IMG/VR virus record: IMGVR_UViG_3300045049_000339 | Span: 1 to 64,000 of that record | Direction: 5' to 3' (one strand) | Length of the DNA: 64,000 nt | Origin: a virus | Part shown: in pieces, positions 28,095 to 61,176 of the stretch | Position numbering within the stretch: the stretch's first letter is position 1 | Layout: each line of letters opens with the position of its first letter | Position numbers and translations under genes: made by a program | Notes under the pieces: model-generated | Seen by the model: only the letters and a program-made list of their open reading frames with translations | Database searches by the model: none | What the model was told of the DNA's origin: nothing

Positions 28095-28176
28095 CCCCCT
28101 GCCGCTTGGTGGCGAGAGCGCCAGACCCCGAAGCCATCGGGGTGGGAAAGCGTCGGTTCGAGTCCGTCCAGGGGTA
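28095..28176 (+). ncRNA. degenerate tRNA-like element
   Basis: cccctg/cagggg acceptor-like stem, T arm gtcgg-TTCGAGT-ccgtc, stem ccccg-aagccat-cgggg, no normal D arm. Confidence 0.45.
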
Positions 28177-28245
28177 CTTGACACAACGCCGGAGAGGTGG
28201 TTGACTCTCTCCCAGGAACAACGACGAGGAAAGAGAGAACCAGTC

Positions 28246-30351: not shown

Positions 30352-30532
30352 GGGCCTGGCTGGTCGAGTCCCCTCGCGGAGGGTTCGGAAGACCTCTTGC
30401 GATTCGCTTCCGTGTTGGCGCACGGATTAGCCAAGCGAACATTCCGAGGCAAGCGGAGTGGGGGCAGACGCCTCCGGCCACGGAAGCTGTCCTGCTGCTA
30501 CAGGACAACGGGTTCGAATCCCGTCAGGTCCA
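30352..30532 (+). ncRNA. 181-nt tRNA-ended structured RNA with Ala identity (G3-U70, A73)
   Basis: GGGCCTG/CAGGTCC-A acceptor, perfect T arm acggg-TTCGAAT-cccgt, interior of at least 5 hairpins. Confidence 0.7.
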
Positions 30533-30578
30533 CTGGCTGCACCATCCGGTGCGGCTGAGGAAAAAGATAAGGAAAAGC

Positions 30579-49738: not shown

Positions 49739-49744
49739 ATTCTC

Positions 49745-49862
49745 GGACGGAGTGGATGCGTCGGCCGGTTCGAGTCCGGTCATCCCCAGGGATGGGGGTC
49801 TGGCTGCGGCCAGCAAATAGGGCGACGGCCCGCGCAGAGGGGTTCGACTCCCCTCCCGTCCA
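49745..49862 (+). ncRNA. tRNA-ended RNA with two T-loop arms
   Basis: GGACGG/CCGTCC-A ends; ggccgg-TTCGAGT-ccggtc and agggg-TTCGACT-cccct. Confidence 0.55.
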
Positions 49863-49919
49863 CGGTCCCCACGAGTGATACCGGCCGCTGCGTAGGCCGG
49901 AGCCTCGTGGGGGCTTCCC

Positions 49920-51682: not shown

Positions 51683-52144
51683 GTGCGGAAAATGAACGAT
51701 CTGATCAACGCCTACTACTTCGACTTCCAGGGCACTCTCGTTGACGTGCGCGGAATCCGTCACCTCTTGGAGACCACCCCCAAGCGGTACGACTCGTTCC
51801 ACTACGCCACGGCAAGCTGCCCGCCGATCTCGTGGGTGGCGTCCGAGGCCCGCAGGGCGCATGAAGAGGGCTTCGCGGTGCTCCTGGGCACCGGTATGAC
51901 CGAGCGCTTCCGGCCCCTGGTGAACTTCTGGCTGGCCAGCCACGAGGTGCATGTGGACGACCTCCAGATGCGCCCCGACGATGACTTCTGCAAGGACTTC
52001 ATCCTGAAGAACCGCATGCTGAGGCGGTGGCAGAACACTCACCGCTTCGTTCACGCGTACGACGACAACCCGGCCGTGATCGAGCACGTCTGGGCAGCAG
52101 CGAATATCCCGCACACGACCGTGCCGGGATGGGGAGAAGGATAG
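51683..52144 (+). CDS. HAD-family phosphatase (PNKP 3'-phosphatase-like), variant motif I
   Basis: YFDFQGTLVDV...GTG..E...LQMRPDDD...D...K...AYDDNPAVI..W. Confidence 0.75.
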   Translation: MRKMNDLINAYYFDFQGTLVDVRGIRHLLETTPKRYDSFHYATASCPPISWVASEARRAHEEGFAVLLGTGMTERFRPLVNFWLASHEVHVDDLQMRPDDDFCKDFILKNRMLRRWQNTHRFVHAYDDNPAVIEHVWAAANIPHTTVPGWGEG

Positions 52145-53583: not shown

Positions 53584-54336
53584 ATGAAGCTCCACCAGCT
53601 CATTGCGAAGCAGGGCAAGGTCGCCGCACGCGTGACCAACGCCGCCAGCGTCATCCACAAGGCGTCGCAGAAGCCCGCTCTGTTCACGGGCGTCAGCATC
53701 ACCTACGAGCCGCTGGCCACCAACGAGAACGACGTCTCCGCGCAGAAGCCGCCGGAGGGCAACTCCGTCCAGCTCTACGCGACCAAGGAGCTGGGCAAGC
53801 TCCGCGAGCTGCTCACCGAGTTGTACGACGTCAACGCGACGCGCGACTGGTCGAACATGGTCGCCCGTGGCACCGTCAAGGTCGGTGACAAGGTCATCCT
53901 CTCGGACGTGCCGGTCCCGTTCCTGCTGTTCCTCAAGCTGGAGCTGAACCGCCTCCGCACCGAGTTCTCCGCCATCCCGGTCCTGGACCCCTCCAAGGAC
54001 TGGAAGGTGGACACGGAGAACGGCGGCTACAAGACCGAGACCACCTGGCAGCACAGCACCCGGCGCGTCAAGAAGGTGCTGGAGCGCTCCCCGGCCACGG
54101 ACAAGCACCAGGCCGTGACGGAGGTCTACGAGGAGGAAGTGCCGGTCGCGAGGAAGGAGACCACCAACTTCTCCGGCGCCCTGAGCCGCGTGGACCGCGA
54201 TGCCCTGATCCGCCAGGTCGACCTGCTCTTCGACGCCGTCACCGAGGCGGTCGAGGAGGCCAACACGGTCGAGGTCGTGGACATGTCCGTCGGCAAGCCC
54301 ATCTTCGACTTCCTTCTGGCCCCGCTGACCCGCTAG
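53584..54336 (+). CDS. conserved hypothetical helical protein (recalled as DUF7873-like, unverified)
   Basis: MKLHQLIA...QKPALFTGVSITYEP...D.NATRDW.N..A...VPVPFLLFL...ATDKHQA...FSGAL...A.EEAN; promoter TAGACA(53529)-N17-TACAGT. Confidence 0.8.
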   Translation: MKLHQLIAKQGKVAARVTNAASVIHKASQKPALFTGVSITYEPLATNENDVSAQKPPEGNSVQLYATKELGKLRELLTELYDVNATRDWSNMVARGTVKVGDKVILSDVPVPFLLFLKLELNRLRTEFSAIPVLDPSKDWKVDTENGGYKTETTWQHSTRRVKKVLERSPATDKHQAVTEVYEEEVPVARKETTNFSGALSRVDRDALIRQVDLLFDAVTEAVEEANTVEVVDMSVGKPIFDFLLAPLTR

Positions 54337-54461
54337 GGTCTCAAGAACTGGTGCTCCGGGTGCACGGGTCCTAGTAAGACGGATCGGCCCTTGTTTGTCC
54401 AGCGGTGGGGTTCACTGACCGCCTGGAGCACCTCCACAGACTCCCGGTTGAGCGACCGGGT

Positions 54462-54713
54462 CTGCACCCGCAGGGTGCGGAAAGCTAACAACTGAATATC
54501 AACATCAGCCGCCGTCGCAACGGTGGCATCAAGCTGAAGCTCTCGCTCAAGCTGAAGCGTCTCGGCAAGGCGTTGATCGAAGTGCGCTGTCCCATCAGGA
54601 GACGTCGGTTCGAATCCGACTCAGGGGACTACGATCCCTGGTGGTGTAGTGGAAGCATTGCCTGGTTTCTCAAATCAAGGCAGCGCCCACCGTGCAACGT
54701 CAGACCGCAGAAT
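54462..54713 (+). ncRNA. YrlA-like permuted tRNA-mimic RNA with hexamer-repeat 5' extension
   Basis: T arm (54604-54620), closed acceptor hairpin (54621-54641), D arm, all enclosed by atcagg/cctggt, gcgctgtc/ggcagcgc and ggcgttg/caacgtc. Confidence 0.75.
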
Positions 54714-57181: not shown

Positions 57182-57531
57182 AACCGACCATTGGCCGGGT
57201 CGTGCACTACCGCAGTCACGGCAGTGCGGACGGCACGTACAAGCCGGAGTGCCGCGCGGCCATCATCACGGCCGTCAAGGGCCACCACGAAGAGCACGAC
57301 CGCCGCATCTGGGTCGTCGACCTCACCGTGTTCAACCCCGAGGGGTTCTTCCTCAAGGACAACGCGCGCCAGGACGAGGGGCACGAGACGCCGGGAGATC
57401 CGGACTGCGAGTACGACGGGCGCCACGACGAGCAGCCGTTCCGGTACTGCGCCTGCGGCTGGCGTGAGGCCGCCATGCACGGAGGGACTTGGCACTGGGT
57501 TGAACGCGAACCCGAAACCGGAGACGAGTAG
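57178..57531 (+). CDS. hypothetical phage protein
   Basis: MKPTIGRVVHY...RAAIITAV...LTVFNP.G...GTWHW pattern. Confidence 0.7.
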   Translation: MKPTIGRVVHYRSHGSADGTYKPECRAAIITAVKGHHEEHDRRIWVVDLTVFNPEGFFLKDNARQDEGHETPGDPDCEYDGRHDEQPFRYCACGWREAAMHGGTWHWVEREPETGDE

Positions 57532-57983
57532 TGCTAACCCTAGTCCTTTCAGACTGGAGTAGTCGCCCTTGTAGTACGGCTCCAAGTGCCACACCAAGGC
57601 GGCCTCGCGGGCGCGTCAAGATCAAAGGCAAGGAGATGACCGCAGCACGTGCAGCCTGGGTCAGCAAGATTGGACCTGTGCCGCCAGGGCTGTGTGTATG
57701 TCATCGGTGCGACAATCCGTCGTGTTGGGAGATCACGCATCTCTTCCTTGGTACAAATGCGGAGAACCTCGCCGATATGGCGCAAAAAGGCCGTAGTACC
57801 TGGGGCGTGAAAAACAACACCACAAAACTCACGCCACGGCAGGTCAACGAGATCCGCGCTGCGCTGCGTAGTGGGGTCGCTCAGCGAGACCTTGCCACTG
57901 TTTACGGTGTTTGCAAGTCGACCATCGGCTACATCGGTCGCGGTGAGACGTGGCAGAAGCTACCCGAGGATGAGGAGCCATGA
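57531..57983 (+). CDS. HNH endonuclease
   Basis: VCHRCDNPSC....HLFLGTNAENLADM..KGR plus C-terminal HTH; start uncertain. Confidence 0.8.
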   Translation: MLTLVLSDWSSRPCSTAPSATPRRPRGRVKIKGKEMTAARAAWVSKIGPVPPGLCVCHRCDNPSCWEITHLFLGTNAENLADMAQKGRSTWGVKNNTTKLTPRQVNEIRAALRSGVAQRDLATVYGVCKSTIGYIGRGETWQKLPEDEEP

Positions 57984-58670: not shown

Positions 58671-58832
58671 TGGGTGTCGGAGGAACCGGGGTAAGGAACA
58701 CGGTTACTTCATTTGACTGGATATCAAAAGGTTGTGGGTTCGAGTCCCACCGGCTCCACTTGTGGGGCTGTAGCTCAATCGGTAGAGAAAACGTGCCCGA
58801 GTTCACTTTGATATCGGTTCCCTCGACACCCA
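58671..58832 (+). ncRNA. Y-RNA-like unit 1 (permuted cloverleaf, loop CTGGATA)
   Basis: terminal stem, GGGGTA, CGGTTACTTC, anticodon arm, T arm, closed acceptor, D arm, TTTGATATC. Confidence 0.85.
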
Positions 58833-58839
58833 CAGACTT

Positions 58840-58995
58840 CCTGTCAGGGGTACAGGCAACGGCTACTTCGCTTCGAAATGCGGGTATCTGTGCAAACAGA
58901 GTGCGGGTTCGAATCCCGTCCGGCTCTTCGCTGAGTCGGTAGACGAATTGGCAAAGTCACCTACGTATCCGATGCCGACTTAGACATCTGACAGG
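58840..58995 (+). ncRNA. Y-RNA-like unit 2 (class II permuted cloverleaf, loop TTCGAAAT)
   Basis: cctgtcag/ctgacagg, GGGGTA, CGGCTACTTC, variable arm tctgt-gcaa-acaga, T arm, acceptor hairpin, D arm. Confidence 0.85.
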
Positions 58996-59007
58996 GCTAA
59001 CTTCATA

Positions 59008-59149
59008 TCTGTCCGGGGTACAGGCTGCGGTTACTTCACCTGTTAAGTGAGAGGTCGCAGGTTCGAATCCTGTCGTGGGGTGATAAGCCCCATGTAGCTC
59101 AGTTTGGGAGAGCGCTAACGTTCCCGCTGCCGCTTCGATATCGGACAGA
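59008..59149 (+). ncRNA. Y-RNA-like unit 3 (permuted tRNA-Asn-like, loop CTGTTAA)
   Basis: tctgtccg/cggacaga, GGGGTA, CGGTTACTTC, ttcac-CTGTTAA-gtgag, T arm, cgtgggg/ccccatg, gctc/gagc D arm. Confidence 0.88.
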
Positions 59150-59164
59150 ACACACAAACTTCAT

Positions 59165-59305
59165 AGCTGCCTGGGGTAAAGACAACGGTTACTTCCATGC
59201 GGAGGAGGTAGCGCAGGTTCGAATCCTGCCGGGGGCCTACGGGCTCCTGTCGTCTAGCGGCCCAGGACGCCTACGTTTCCGTTATCGCTTTGATATCAGG
59301 CAGCT
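59165..59305 (+). ncRNA. Y-RNA-like unit 4 (permuted cloverleaf, loop ATGCGGA)
   Basis: agctgcctg/caggcagct, same conserved boxes, Glu-type D arm tcgtctagcggcccaggac. Confidence 0.85.
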
Positions 59306-59306
59306 T

Positions 59307-59400
59307 GCAGAACCCATCACCGGGGTACTGCTCACGGTTACTTCACCCTTCAAAGATGAAAAAACACCGTGAGCGCTCTGAAATCGGTGGTGGGTTCTGC
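59307..59400 (+). ncRNA. Y-RNA-like unit 5 (minimal, single stem-loop CTTCAAA)
   Basis: gcagaacccatcaccg/cggtggtgggttctgc, GGGGTA, CGGTTACTTC, CTGAAATC; no T, D or acceptor arm. Confidence 0.8.
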
Positions 59401-59443: not shown

Positions 59444-61126
59444 ATGGCCAAGTTTAACCAGAAGACCCGTACCTGGGAGAACCAGGGAGGTTCGGCCTTT
59501 CCCGCCGCAGGAACGAAGCGGCAGACCACCACGACCACGAACCACACCGGCCGTGCCGTGTGGAACCTGGACGACAAGACCAACCTGTTCTTCCGCGCCA
59601 CGTCCGCCTTCGCCGGTCAGGACACGTACTACGAGAAAGGCGCCAAGCGCGACGCCGAGGCCATCGCCTTGGTCCGAAAGCTCGCTATCGGCGACTGGGA
59701 CTGGACGGCGAAGTTCCTCGTCTGGCTGCGCGCCGAGGGCAACATGCGCACCGCGCCGGTCATGCTGGCTGTCGAGGCAGTTCGTGCACGCCTGGAGAAG
59801 AAGCTGCACCCGGCTGCCGGTGAGATGTCTCACCGTGCGCTCATCGCGGCTGTTCTCCAGCGCGCGGATGAGCCGGGCGAGATGCTCGCCTACTACGAGA
59901 ACGTCGTCGGCCGCACCATGCCGAAGGCGATCAAGCGTGGTATCGGTGACGCGGCCAAGCGCATGTACAACGAGCGCAACTTCCTGCGGTACGACAGTTC
60001 GTCCAAGGCCATCCGTTTCGGCGGCGTCGCCGAGATGGCTCAGATGCCGAAGACGCACGGCTGGCAGTCCGACCTGATCACCTACGCCATTGGTGAGCAG
60101 CACCACCGTGAGCAGGACATCCCTGACACGTTGGCGGCACTTCGTGCACGCAATGAGCTGAACAAGATGGACGCCAGCGACCGTCACGTTTTCGCGAAGA
60201 GCGCACTGGGCGGCCACATCATCAACCGCACCAAGCTGGACCTGGCCATGGCCGGGCAGTGGGAGTGGTTCATGAGTTGGCTCGGTGATGCGAAGGGTGC
60301 CAAGGCCATCACGACGAAGGAGAAGTGGACGTTCGCCGCCCAGCGCATGGGCATCATGGCGGTCGTCCGCAACCTCCGGAACTTCGACGAGGCCGGTCTC
60401 AAGACGGGCGACAGCATCGTCACCGAGATCAGTGGTCGGCTCACGAACGAGGAGCAGATCGCGAAGTCCCGCATGTTCCCGTTCCGGTTCTTCACGGCGC
60501 ACTTGCAGCTCAAGTCCGTCACGTGGGCGGCCGGTCTGGAGGTGGCGCTTCAGCACTCGCTCCAGAACCTTCCGGAGCTGCCGGGCCGGACGCTGATCCT
60601 CGTCGACACCTCGGGGTCGATGCAGCAGAAGCTCTCGGCCAAGTCCGAGATGTCCTACGCCCAGGCCGCCGCACTGTTCGGCTGTGCCCTGAAGATCAAG
60701 AACCCGGACGGGGTCAACCTGTGGGGGTTCGCCGACGGGCAGTTCGAGGCGCAGGCCACCACGGGTCACAGCGTTCTGCGCTGTGCCGAGGAGTTCTGCC
60801 GCCAGAACGGCCTGGTCGGTCACGGAACGCAGATGGAGGCGGCCGTCCGTGCCACGTACGCGGGGCACGACCGAGTCATCATCATCTCCGACATGCAGGC
60901 GTTCCCGACCGGCGGTTACAGCCGGTACGGGTACAGCTACATGACCGGTGACGTCGCTGGGGCTGTTCCGGCGCACATCCCGGTATACGGTTTCAACCTG
61001 GCCAGCGGCTCCACCACACCGCTGGGCAAGGGCAACCGGCACAGCCTTGGTGGCCTCTCGGATGTGACGTTCAAGCTGATCCCTCAGCTTGAGAAGGTCG
61101 GCCGGGGTTCGTGGCCCTGGGAGTAA
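59444..61126 (+). CDS. rsr: Ro60/TROVE domain ribonucleoprotein with C-terminal vWA domain
   Basis: QDTYYE, LRAEGNMRTAP, QRADEPGEMLAYY, PKAIKRGI.DA, MAVVRNLRNFDEAG, KSRMFPFRF, TLILVDTSGSM, IIISDMQ; RBS AGGAGG. Confidence 0.95.
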   Translation: MAKFNQKTRTWENQGGSAFPAAGTKRQTTTTTNHTGRAVWNLDDKTNLFFRATSAFAGQDTYYEKGAKRDAEAIALVRKLAIGDWDWTAKFLVWLRAEGNMRTAPVMLAVEAVRARLEKKLHPAAGEMSHRALIAAVLQRADEPGEMLAYYENVVGRTMPKAIKRGIGDAAKRMYNERNFLRYDSSSKAIRFGGVAEMAQMPKTHGWQSDLITYAIGEQHHREQDIPDTLAALRARNELNKMDASDRHVFAKSALGGHIINRTKLDLAMAGQWEWFMSWLGDAKGAKAITTKEKWTFAAQRMGIMAVVRNLRNFDEAGLKTGDSIVTEISGRLTNEEQIAKSRMFPFRFFTAHLQLKSVTWAAGLEVALQHSLQNLPELPGRTLILVDTSGSMQQKLSAKSEMSYAQAAALFGCALKIKNPDGVNLWGFADGQFEAQATTGHSVLRCAEEFCRQNGLVGHGTQMEAAVRATYAGHDRVIIISDMQAFPTGGYSRYGYSYMTGDVAGAVPAHIPVYGFNLASGSTTPLGKGNRHSLGGLSDVTFKLIPQLEKVGRGSWPWE

Positions 61127-61140
61127 TCCCAGAAACACGA

Positions 61141-61176
61141 AAAGAGCCCCCGCCTCGAAAGAGGCGGGGGCTCTTT
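61141..61176. terminator. bidirectional terminator
   Basis: aaagagcccccgcctc-gaaa-gaggcgggggctcttt between convergent operons. Confidence 0.88.

Follow-up and report, generated by a model that had tools for sequence, protein, structure and literature searches.

This study concerns an array of Y RNA units that lies directly 5' of a Ro60/TROVE gene in a phage genome, and in particular a hairpin within each unit that resembles the anticodon arm of a tRNA. The window analysed comprises the first 64 kb of IMG/VR virus record IMGVR_UViG_3300045049_000339, a record of 107.7 kb that is 99% complete. At positions 58671-59400 of this window, one frame of conserved boxes (GGGGTA, CGG-TTAC-TTC, ACGT and TTTGATATC) is repeated five times at a spacing of 149-168 nucleotides (nt), and each copy is closed by an inverted repeat of its own. 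Four of the copies are Y RNA units of the YrlA type and the fifth is a minimal unit; all are listed in Table 1. In unit 1, an 18-nt closing stem is followed by the GGGGTA box, the TTAC-TTC box, hairpin H, the V loop AGGTT and the T arm and then, towards the 3' end, by a loop-closed acceptor stem of 7 base pairs (bp), the D arm, the ACGT box and the TTTGATATC box. Unit 5 has a 16-nt closing stem and all of the scaffold boxes, is devoid of T, acceptor and D arms, and folds as a long rod.

The assignment of the array to the YrlA type rests on its adjacency to a Ro60/Rsr (TROVE) gene, on the permuted order of T arm, closed acceptor stem and D arm in units 1-4, as seen in the Rfam alignments and with ARAGORN after re-permutation, and on the YUAY motif that opens the V region, which is TTAC in units 1, 3, 4 and 5 and CTAC in unit 2 and stands directly 5' of the hairpin. 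Units 1-4 give local matches to the Rfam YrlA model (RF02553) that cover the T arm, the loop-closed acceptor stem and the D arm (35.2, 28.1, 20.4 and 16.7 bits, in descending order of score); the model has no place for the extra hairpin, which is forced onto the strands of the Ro helix. Given the repeated frame, the TROVE open reading frame (ORF) and these sub-threshold matches, the locus is taken to be a Y RNA array that feeds the phage Ro60 gene. Loci with Y RNAs beside Ro60 have been known since Chen et al. 2014 (PMC4201824).

The TROVE ORF begins 44 nt after the last unit. Its product is 61% identical to the protein of a related viral contig (L001) and 35-45% identical to the 'Ro-like RNA binding proteins' encoded by many actinomycetes and by phages of Streptomyces, Gordonia and Arthrobacter. 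The five-unit array, the Ro60 gene and the terminator that follows it would constitute one operon, no terminator-like site being found between the Y RNA units, and the array would be transcribed as a single precursor and cut into individual Y RNAs. The spacers between units at 58833-58845, 58997-59010 and 59150-59166 share the motif ACAACTTCATA (ACAGACTTCC in the first of them), which also occurs at the same position in many related loci and takes the form CACAACTT(C/G)ATA in actinobacterial Ro loci; it may be the processing site at which the precursor is cut into single Y RNAs. Two genes 5' of the array, at 57531-57980, an HNH endonuclease with a helix-turn-helix tail is encoded (Pfam HNH_3, E 1e-9).

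Table 1. Features of the Y RNA array and of the adjoining Ro60 gene, in window coordinates.
Feature	Position	Strand	Basis or remark
Y RNA unit 1, YrlA-type	58671..58832	+	inverted repeat I1, repeat families D1-D7, sub-threshold Rfam YrlA match of 28.1 bits
Unit 1 hairpin H, tttga-CTGGATA-tcaaa	58712..58728	+	direct reading; aligned as anticodon arm by the Rfam tRNA model
Y RNA unit 2, YrlA-type, class II-like body	58840..58996	+	repeat families; constrained fold shows all arms
Unit 2 hairpin H, ttcgc-TTCGAAAT-gcggg, 5-bp stem, 8-nt loop	58867..58884	+	direct reading, ARAGORN
Unit 2 second hairpin, tctgt-gcaa-acaga, at the variable-arm position	58887..58900	+	direct reading, constrained fold, ARAGORN
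Y RNA unit 3, YrlA-type	59008..59149	+	best local Rfam YrlA match, 35.2 bits, E 9e-6
Unit 3 hairpin H, ttcac-CTGTTAA-gtgag, 5-bp stem	59035..59051	+	direct reading
Y RNA unit 4, YrlA-type	59165..59304	+	D arm, V loop and T arm closely like actinobacterial tRNA-Glu
Unit 4 hairpin H, cttcc-ATGCGGA-ggagg, 5-bp stem, then 4-nt V loop TAGC as in tRNA-Glu	59192..59208	+	direct reading, ARAGORN
Y RNA unit 5, minimal, YrlB-like	59307..59400	+	inverted repeat I2; fold z-score -6.6
Unit 5 hairpin, ttcacc-CTTCAAA-gatgaa, 6-bp stem with one C.A mismatch	59342..59360	+	weakest of the five
Ro60/Rsr ortholog, 560 amino acids, TROVE and vWA-like tail	59444..61126	+	Pfam TROVE, E 6e-11
Likely bidirectional terminator at the end of the operon, a GC-rich hairpin of 16 bp flanked on either side by T runs	61141..61176	.	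sequence

Hairpins of the units and their resemblance to tRNAs

The sequence-only reading of this stretch had claimed a hairpin directly after the TTACTTC box in each of the five units, and all of them are found at the claimed positions by direct reading, that of unit 5 being the weakest. It had further described units 1-4 as whole cloverleafs opened between the D and anticodon arms. When the portion with the 5' acceptor strand and D arm (positions 1-26) was joined to the portion with the hairpin, V loop, T arm and 3' acceptor strand (27-73), ARAGORN called all four re-permuted forms, in agreement with that description: unit 1 as tRNA-Ser(gga), unit 2 as an ambiguous Ser/Phe tRNA with the 4-base anticodon cgaa, a long variable arm and a 3-bp D stem, unit 3 as tRNA-Asn(gtt) and unit 4 as tRNA-Arg(gcg). 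The combination of an 8-nt loop and a class II variable arm that had been proposed for unit 2 is likewise borne out, the long variable arm being a separate hairpin in the ARAGORN model. Re-permuted units from related loci (see below) were accepted as tRNAs in 102 of 120 cases. Plain minimum-free-energy folding of single units was uninformative (z-scores of -0.4 to -1.5, with the cloverleaf recovered only in part), so that comparative analysis was required.

The whole 107.7-kb record holds eight genuine tRNAs (Pro-tgg, Leu-caa, Met-cat, Lys-ttt, Phe-gaa, Ile-gat, Gln-ctg and Arg-tct), and no unit shares its triplet with any of them. The earlier statement that the triplets are absent from the tRNA set of the phage is correct to this extent, although the set had been counted as nine; the 'ninth tRNA', called by ARAGORN as tRNA-SeC(tca) at 58682-58759 and matched there by the Rfam tRNA model with 31.2 bits, is in fact unit 1. 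Gene finders can misread such units as tRNAs, here as a selenocysteine tRNA and apparently also in at least one deposited phage genome. In Streptomyces phage GiJojo (L320, 1269-1343, gene 29), an annotated tRNA-Arg(cct) just 5' of the Ro-like gene overlaps a Y RNA unit with the same scaffold boxes and the same permuted T/acceptor/D module.

The loops of the units were compared with those of the tRNAs of a single complete actinomycete genome in which a locus of this kind is present, and the re-permuted bodies with 73 genuine tRNAs of that genome plus the phage. The five commonest loops are identical in all 7 bases to genuine anticodon loops: CTGTTAA (Asn, 15 units), CTGCTAA (Ser-GCU, 9), CTCTCAA (Glu-CUC, 6), CTGTCAA (Asp, 5) and CTCTTAA (Lys-CUU, 5). 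The Asn loop is carried by at least five different covarying stems (ttcac/gtgag, ttcga/tcgag, ttcgc/gcgag, ttcca/tgggg and ttccg/cgggg), and the triplets of units within one locus differ in 12 of 13 multi-unit loci. Unannotated units with the CTGTTAA loop were also observed in Xanthomonas phage MET23-P3 (L321, 35113-35203), about 190 nt 5' of a Ro-like 'hypothetical protein', and in Microbacterium phage FuzzBuster (L322, 49097-49184), which is not among the phages listed with a Ro-like gene; both have a 4-5-bp stem, the V loop AGGTC, a T arm, a closed acceptor stem and a D arm.

Within the phage array, the loop of unit 3 is identical to the genuine tRNA-Asn loop. The loop of unit 2, TTCGAAAT, corresponds to the loop TTCGAAA of genuine tRNA-Ser(CGA) plus one base. 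That of unit 4 is one base away from the Arg-GCG loop and sits on a body (D arm, V loop and T arm) near tRNA-Glu, and unit 1 combines a non-Lys loop with a V loop and T arm that match a tRNA-Lys at every one of 22 nt. The notion that each unit is copied from a single tRNA isotype in both its body and its anticodon was discarded, as only 9 of 82 units agree. Because triplet and body mostly disagree, the equation of one unit with one mimicked tRNA is clean only for some types (Asn, Gln and Glu).

Conservation across related Ro60 loci and geometry of the junction

For the comparative sample, loci with a gene related to this Ro60 were taken together with 1.5 kb of upstream sequence, 80 of them bacterial and 64 viral. 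Scripts of our own, anchored on the T loop, recognised a unit wherever a T arm had a closed acceptor stem of 7 bp and then a D arm 3' of it. The sample yielded 218 distinct tRNA-like units from 118 Ro60 loci of actinobacteria and phages, with 1-5 units per locus, the counts being uncorrected for shared ancestry. With four tRNA-like units and a minimal one, the phage stands at the upper end of this range. A loose DNA pattern scan of viral contigs gave chance matches only. Mycobacteriophage Ro genes were not found among the tblastn matches listed, and in eight bacterial Ro loci the flanking genes gave no informative Pfam context. Many bacterial Ro loci (e.g. L123 1201, L125 1221 and L131 1224) also contain a second type of unit, in which a TACTT box leads straight into a T arm (CGAGGTTCGAnTCCTTG) with neither hairpin nor D arm, and which is probably the T-arm-bearing YrlB reported for Mycobacterium smegmatis.

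In the 218 units, the interval separating the TAC box from the T stem has a sharp peak at 22 nt, which equals 5+7+5+5. In a fixed 5-7-5 register, at least four of the five stem positions are paired in 81 of the 124 units with distances of 20-23 nt, compared with 12.5% of shuffles. Within these 81 units, Y32 is found in 71, U33 in 79, R37 in 79 and A38 in 78, while positions 34-36 take all values. Loop size and U33 are hence kept across homologs while the triplets vary; their loss had been named beforehand as the outcome that would refute the sequence-only reading, so that this test speaks in its favour. The true share of units with the hairpin is higher, since some of those outside the fixed register combine the same loops of 7 nt with stems of 6 bp; about a third of the units have loops of other sizes or other layouts. 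The pairing is also evident in 67 units selected by length alone and not by pairing, in which the hairpin helix is 86% paired and its two inner pairs are changed on both sides in 24 and 15 sequences; stem positions 30:40 and 31:39 covary. Controls with slid partners (whole structure, 10 pairs) lower the pairing to 34-57%. The hairpin is accordingly regarded as a general feature of such units and not as a product of chance.

The units of L001 bear triplets that differ from those of the phage, and this includes the ortholog of unit 1, which has the same stem and the loop ATGATAA; the mean column identity of this pair is 88% over the aligned unit, yet 4 of the 7 loop positions differ. The counterpart of unit 5 in L001 contains a nested hairpin whose loop, TTCTGGT, is that of genuine tRNA-Gln(CUG). 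These differences in triplets between two phages with Ro proteins 61% identical would suit the view that the loops are a neutral relic of recent copies of tRNA genes (for instance tandem duplicates) in which the hairpin has not yet decayed, and so would the bodies that are still near specific tRNAs, such as unit 4 (Glu), the V loop and T arm of unit 1 (Lys) and L003/L230 (Gln). However, the frame of the loop (7 nt, U33, R37 and A38) is kept across Ro proteins that are 35-45% identical and across actinobacterial and Xanthomonas phages, and the stems covary, which indicates purifying selection and not decay. We therefore consider a relic to be quite improbable.

A hairpin of this kind is not new, and the issue is how it should be read. 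Chen et al. 2014 (PMC4201824) described a 'less-conserved V stem-loop' 5' of the T arm in many YrlA RNAs, with the conserved YUAY beginning V; in their account, YrlA is a mimic of the acceptor stem and of the D and T arms of a tRNA. In the present units, the hairpin that follows the TTAC-TTC box is interpreted as the same element and as the homolog of the tRNA anticodon arm. The alternative, that it is the equivalent of a variable arm serving as a structural spacer and playing no anticodon-like part, that the Ro-proximal helix is the anticodon stem and that the tRNA-like features of the loop are inherited baggage, agrees with the published label and with the circular order of the elements, since a Ro helix after the D arm and a hairpin before the T arm have the topology of a class II tRNA. 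It agrees also with the solved Salmonella YrlA, in which the Ro-side helix stacks as an anticodon stem, and with the third of units that have loops other than 7 nt or other layouts.

The geometry of the junction, as examined in 120 units folded with the tRNA arms fixed, speaks for the anticodon-arm interpretation. In more than 62 of them, the Ro-proximal helix closes with AC/GT at 0 nt from the hairpin and at 5-7 nt from the D stem, and the linker between D stem and Ro helix has the consensus RCYWAC. Four units have TTC as the box, and three of these four have GA in place of GT on the partner strand, which is a compensatory change. A different junction helix, in which GTTA of the box would pair with TAAC 3' of the D arm, was dismissed because it is not kept when the box varies, and the AC/GT closure was preferred. 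The spacer between hairpin and T stem measures 4-5 nt and follows the V-loop consensus of tRNAs, AGGTC or TGGTC. As the Ro helix is flush with the hairpin and 5-7 nt away from the D stem, all four native tRNA linkers are intact, namely the 2 nt between acceptor and D stems, the 4-5 nt between hairpin and T stem, the 0 nt between T and acceptor stems, and position 26. The Ro helix would in effect be an insert between tRNA positions 26 and 27 that gives rise to a five-way junction. By contrast, a class II variable arm ends 1-2 nt before the T stem, where the hairpin leaves 5 nt of V-loop consensus, and a Ro helix acting as anticodon stem should stand 1 nt from the D stem as in tRNA. Variable arms follow no rule like the one that keeps U33, R37 and A38 at 96-98%, the loops are identical to genuine anticodon loops, and unit 2 bears a separate variable-arm hairpin besides hairpin H. 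On this evidence, a variable-arm identity of the hairpin appears unlikely.

The units can be compared on this basis with the YrlA RNAs already described. Those of actinobacteria and mycobacteriophages (PMC4201824, RF02553) are also located directly 5' of Ro60/Rsr, often several per locus, and share the 5' docking box, the YUAY motif, the permuted T arm, closed acceptor stem and D arm, and a fourth stem-loop 5' of the T arm; the units of the phage differ from their published description, on which the comparison relies, in the anticodon-arm geometry and loop rules, in the GGGGTA box and in Rfam scores below the threshold. The YrlA of Salmonella Typhimurium (crystal structure 6CU1; Wang et al. 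2018, doi 10.1101/312249) likewise mimics a tRNA in its L shape, has a closed acceptor stem and bears the Ro helix on the anticodon side. However, its anticodon stem runs into the Ro helix through a four-way junction and there is no anticodon loop, whereas the phage units keep a closed anticodon hairpin with the Ro helix attached beside it in a five-way junction. The contrast with described YrlA RNAs drawn in the sequence-only reading is thus appropriate for Salmonella and overlooks the extra stem-loop that Chen et al. 2014 had already reported as V. Within the literature searched, the anticodon-arm reading, with a five-way junction and the Ro helix at 26/27, appears to be new.

Working tRNAs as an alternative

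Two further explanations have to be weighed. The first had been proposed in the sequence-only reading as one of its two explanations: the units would be circularly permuted tRNA genes from which the insert with the Ro helix is excised and the ends ligated, giving working tRNAs, such as a tRNA-Asn from unit 3, that complement the phage set. Such genes are known from Cyanidioschyzon merolae, in which the 3' half is encoded first, the acceptor strands are joined by a short linker, and working tRNAs are matured via a circular intermediate by splicing machinery of the eukaryotic/archaeal kind. All four re-permuted units pass ARAGORN and no triplet duplicates one of the eight phage tRNAs, as this explanation would require, but most of the evidence points elsewhere. 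The discriminator is a pyrimidine in 91 of 120 units, including phage units 2-4 (T, T and C, respectively), and in genuine bacterial tRNAs purines predominate at this position. The acceptor end is not free, being closed by a loop of 4-7 nt. Unit 1 would place Ser(GGA) on a class I body and has U37, unit 2 has a loop of 8 nt, and triplet and body disagree in most units. The break carries a conserved Ro-docking scaffold, unlike that of the Cyanidioschyzon genes, and the units stand beside Ro60 in 118 loci. As regards a maturation route joining 26 to 27, no RtcB, RNA_ligase or CCA-adding enzyme is encoded in the 99%-complete phage record, and the YrlA of M. smegmatis persists as two Ro-bound halves, with no ligated product reported. 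To our knowledge, there is no bacterial pathway that excises an insert at 26/27. With pyrimidine discriminators, mismatched bodies, no phage ligase and a precedent for RNAs in two pieces, maturation to permuted tRNAs was given up as extremely improbable.

The second explanation dispenses with ligation. A two-piece RNA with a CCA tail could be aminoacylated and engage EF-Tu or the ribosome, or its CCA could merely protect it against exonucleases. Cutting by RNase P and addition of CCA do occur in vivo in M. smegmatis, and possible aminoacylation was raised by Chen et al. 2014 (PMC4201824). In the present units, the acceptor stems have 7 bp, G+1 is found in 83 of 120, unit 1 encodes A73-C74, and with a complete anticodon arm the cut product would have the full shape of a tRNA. 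Against this, position 73 has the pyrimidine bias mentioned above, an eighth pair closing the acceptor stem is possible in 96 of 120 units, Ser anticodons stand on bodies that have no long variable arm and mismatches of triplet and body are common, and the phage does not encode the CCA enzyme. Charged or CCA-protected two-piece RNAs are accordingly a rather unlikely account of the array.

Candidate readers of the anticodon-like loop

Taken together, it is reasonably probable that the locus is an operon of Ro-docked Y RNAs, that units 1-4 carry a permuted whole cloverleaf including an anticodon arm, and that the loop of this arm is read as the loop of a tRNA. Each Y RNA would dock on the phage Ro60 via its scaffold helix, and in units 1-4 the docking helix would carry anticodon arm, V loop, T arm, loop-closed acceptor stem and D arm. 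Such a tRNA-shaped module may present its U-turn anticodon loop to a host or phage factor that normally recognises such loops, given that the U-turn frame persists in loci whose Ro proteins are very distant from one another and that the loops which recur reproduce genuine ones exactly.

Several points weigh against this joint interpretation. Loops that are canonical in every respect (7 nt, U33 and a purine at 37) are confined, within the phage, to units 3 and 4, because unit 1, although it has U33, has a U at position 37 and the loop of unit 2 has 8 nt instead of 7. None of the units reaches the Rfam YrlA gathering threshold of 69 bits, the best score being 35.2 bits. The published Ro60-contact motif GNCGAA(N0-1)G is absent, and the units have GGGGTAAGG, GGGGTACAGG, GGGGTAAAG or GGGGTACTG in its place; the docking box reads GGGGTA(A/C)(A/T)G in the array and GGTGCG(A/C)AGG or GGTGTACAGG in relatives, and is best regarded as a diverged variant of the published motif. 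The small number of units in which the triplet fits the isotype of the nearest body (9 of 82) and the lack of a correction for ancestry in the counts belong here as well. In addition, 12-13 of 46 distinct loops match genuine tRNA loops, compared with a mean of 6.5-8.6 and a maximum of 13-15 in a permutation null, so that the excess is modest. Finally, sequence alone does not reveal which of the two, hairpin or Ro helix, is stacked under the D stem.

As to the role of the module, we tentatively favour, with confidence well short of even, a competitive mimic, decoy or sentinel for tRNA-targeting enzymes in which each unit would imitate a different tRNA; equally possible is a tether for a loop-modifying enzyme or a synthetase. 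The mimic or decoy corresponds to the other explanation offered by the sequence-only reading, a panel of anticodon decoys, which is compatible with the data and plausible. Phages are known to counter anticodon nucleases by other means: T4 Pnk/Rnl1 repairs tRNA-Lys cut by PrrC, and the tRNAs of other phages replace or shield the host tRNAs that are targeted. The array resembles these systems in that tRNA-shaped RNAs are borne by a phage in or beside a tRNA cluster, with a PNKP-like phosphatase nearby, but they consist of chargeable tRNAs or repair enzymes, whereas here Ro60-tethered mimics are predicted and no ligase is encoded. There are also precedents within the family: YrlA RNAs arise by processing of a single precursor, carry modifications made by tRNA enzymes and are bound by Rsr; the M. 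smegmatis RNA remains bound to Rsr after being cut by RNase P and tailed with CCA. Salmonella YrlA has been suggested as a competitive inhibitor of an anticodon nuclease (Hughes et al. 2020), a proposal that the decoy idea extends.

The neighbourhood of the array, with eight tRNAs, a PNKP-like phosphatase and other tRNA-shaped RNAs, fits the decoy idea loosely. At 51683-52141, an ORF of 153 amino acids has a match to the HAD_PNKP phosphatase just below the Pfam cut-off (26.7 versus 27.6 bits); no kinase or ligase partner for it was found in the phage. In the region 53584-54700, a gene for a DUF7873 protein occupies 53584-54333 (Pfam E 1.5e-67), and 3' of it lies non-coding DNA in which short motifs recur. 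This DNA contains, at about 54601-54665, another permuted tRNA-like domain that consists of a T arm, an acceptor stem closed by a loop and a D arm of Gln-like sequence and has no Ro scaffold boxes. Between tRNA-Pro and tRNA-Leu, at 49740-49900, two T-arm-like hairpins are seen (GGTTCGAGTCC and GGTTCGACTCC), the first of which is followed by a loop-closed GC-rich stem; neither ARAGORN nor Rfam calls them tRNAs. Isolated T-arm-like hairpins with complementary flanks also occur at 28140-28180 and 30495-30540 (GGTTCGAGTCC and GGTTCGAATCC), far from the tRNA cluster.

For the family as a whole, the locus is a variant of the known YrlA/Ro60 system, and the insight it offers is a handle on the function of the tRNA-like domain, whose role in bacterial Y RNAs has been an open question since 2014. 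If the hairpin is a true mimic of the anticodon arm, the module is a mimic of a whole tRNA and not of the elbow and acceptor only, and the candidate partners are therefore narrowed to anticodon nucleases, loop-modifying enzymes, synthetases and the ribosome. A broader and more speculative proposal, to which we attach only limited confidence, is that the Ro60-tethered Y RNAs of actinobacteria and of many phages would be panels of anticodon stem-loop mimics, each for one tRNA species (most often Asn), in which the triplet would determine which tRNA-targeting nucleases or anticodon-loop enzymes are absorbed, sensed or redirected. The arrays of phages may then act in counter-defence, and Ro60 would deliver the bound or cut partners to decay or repair.

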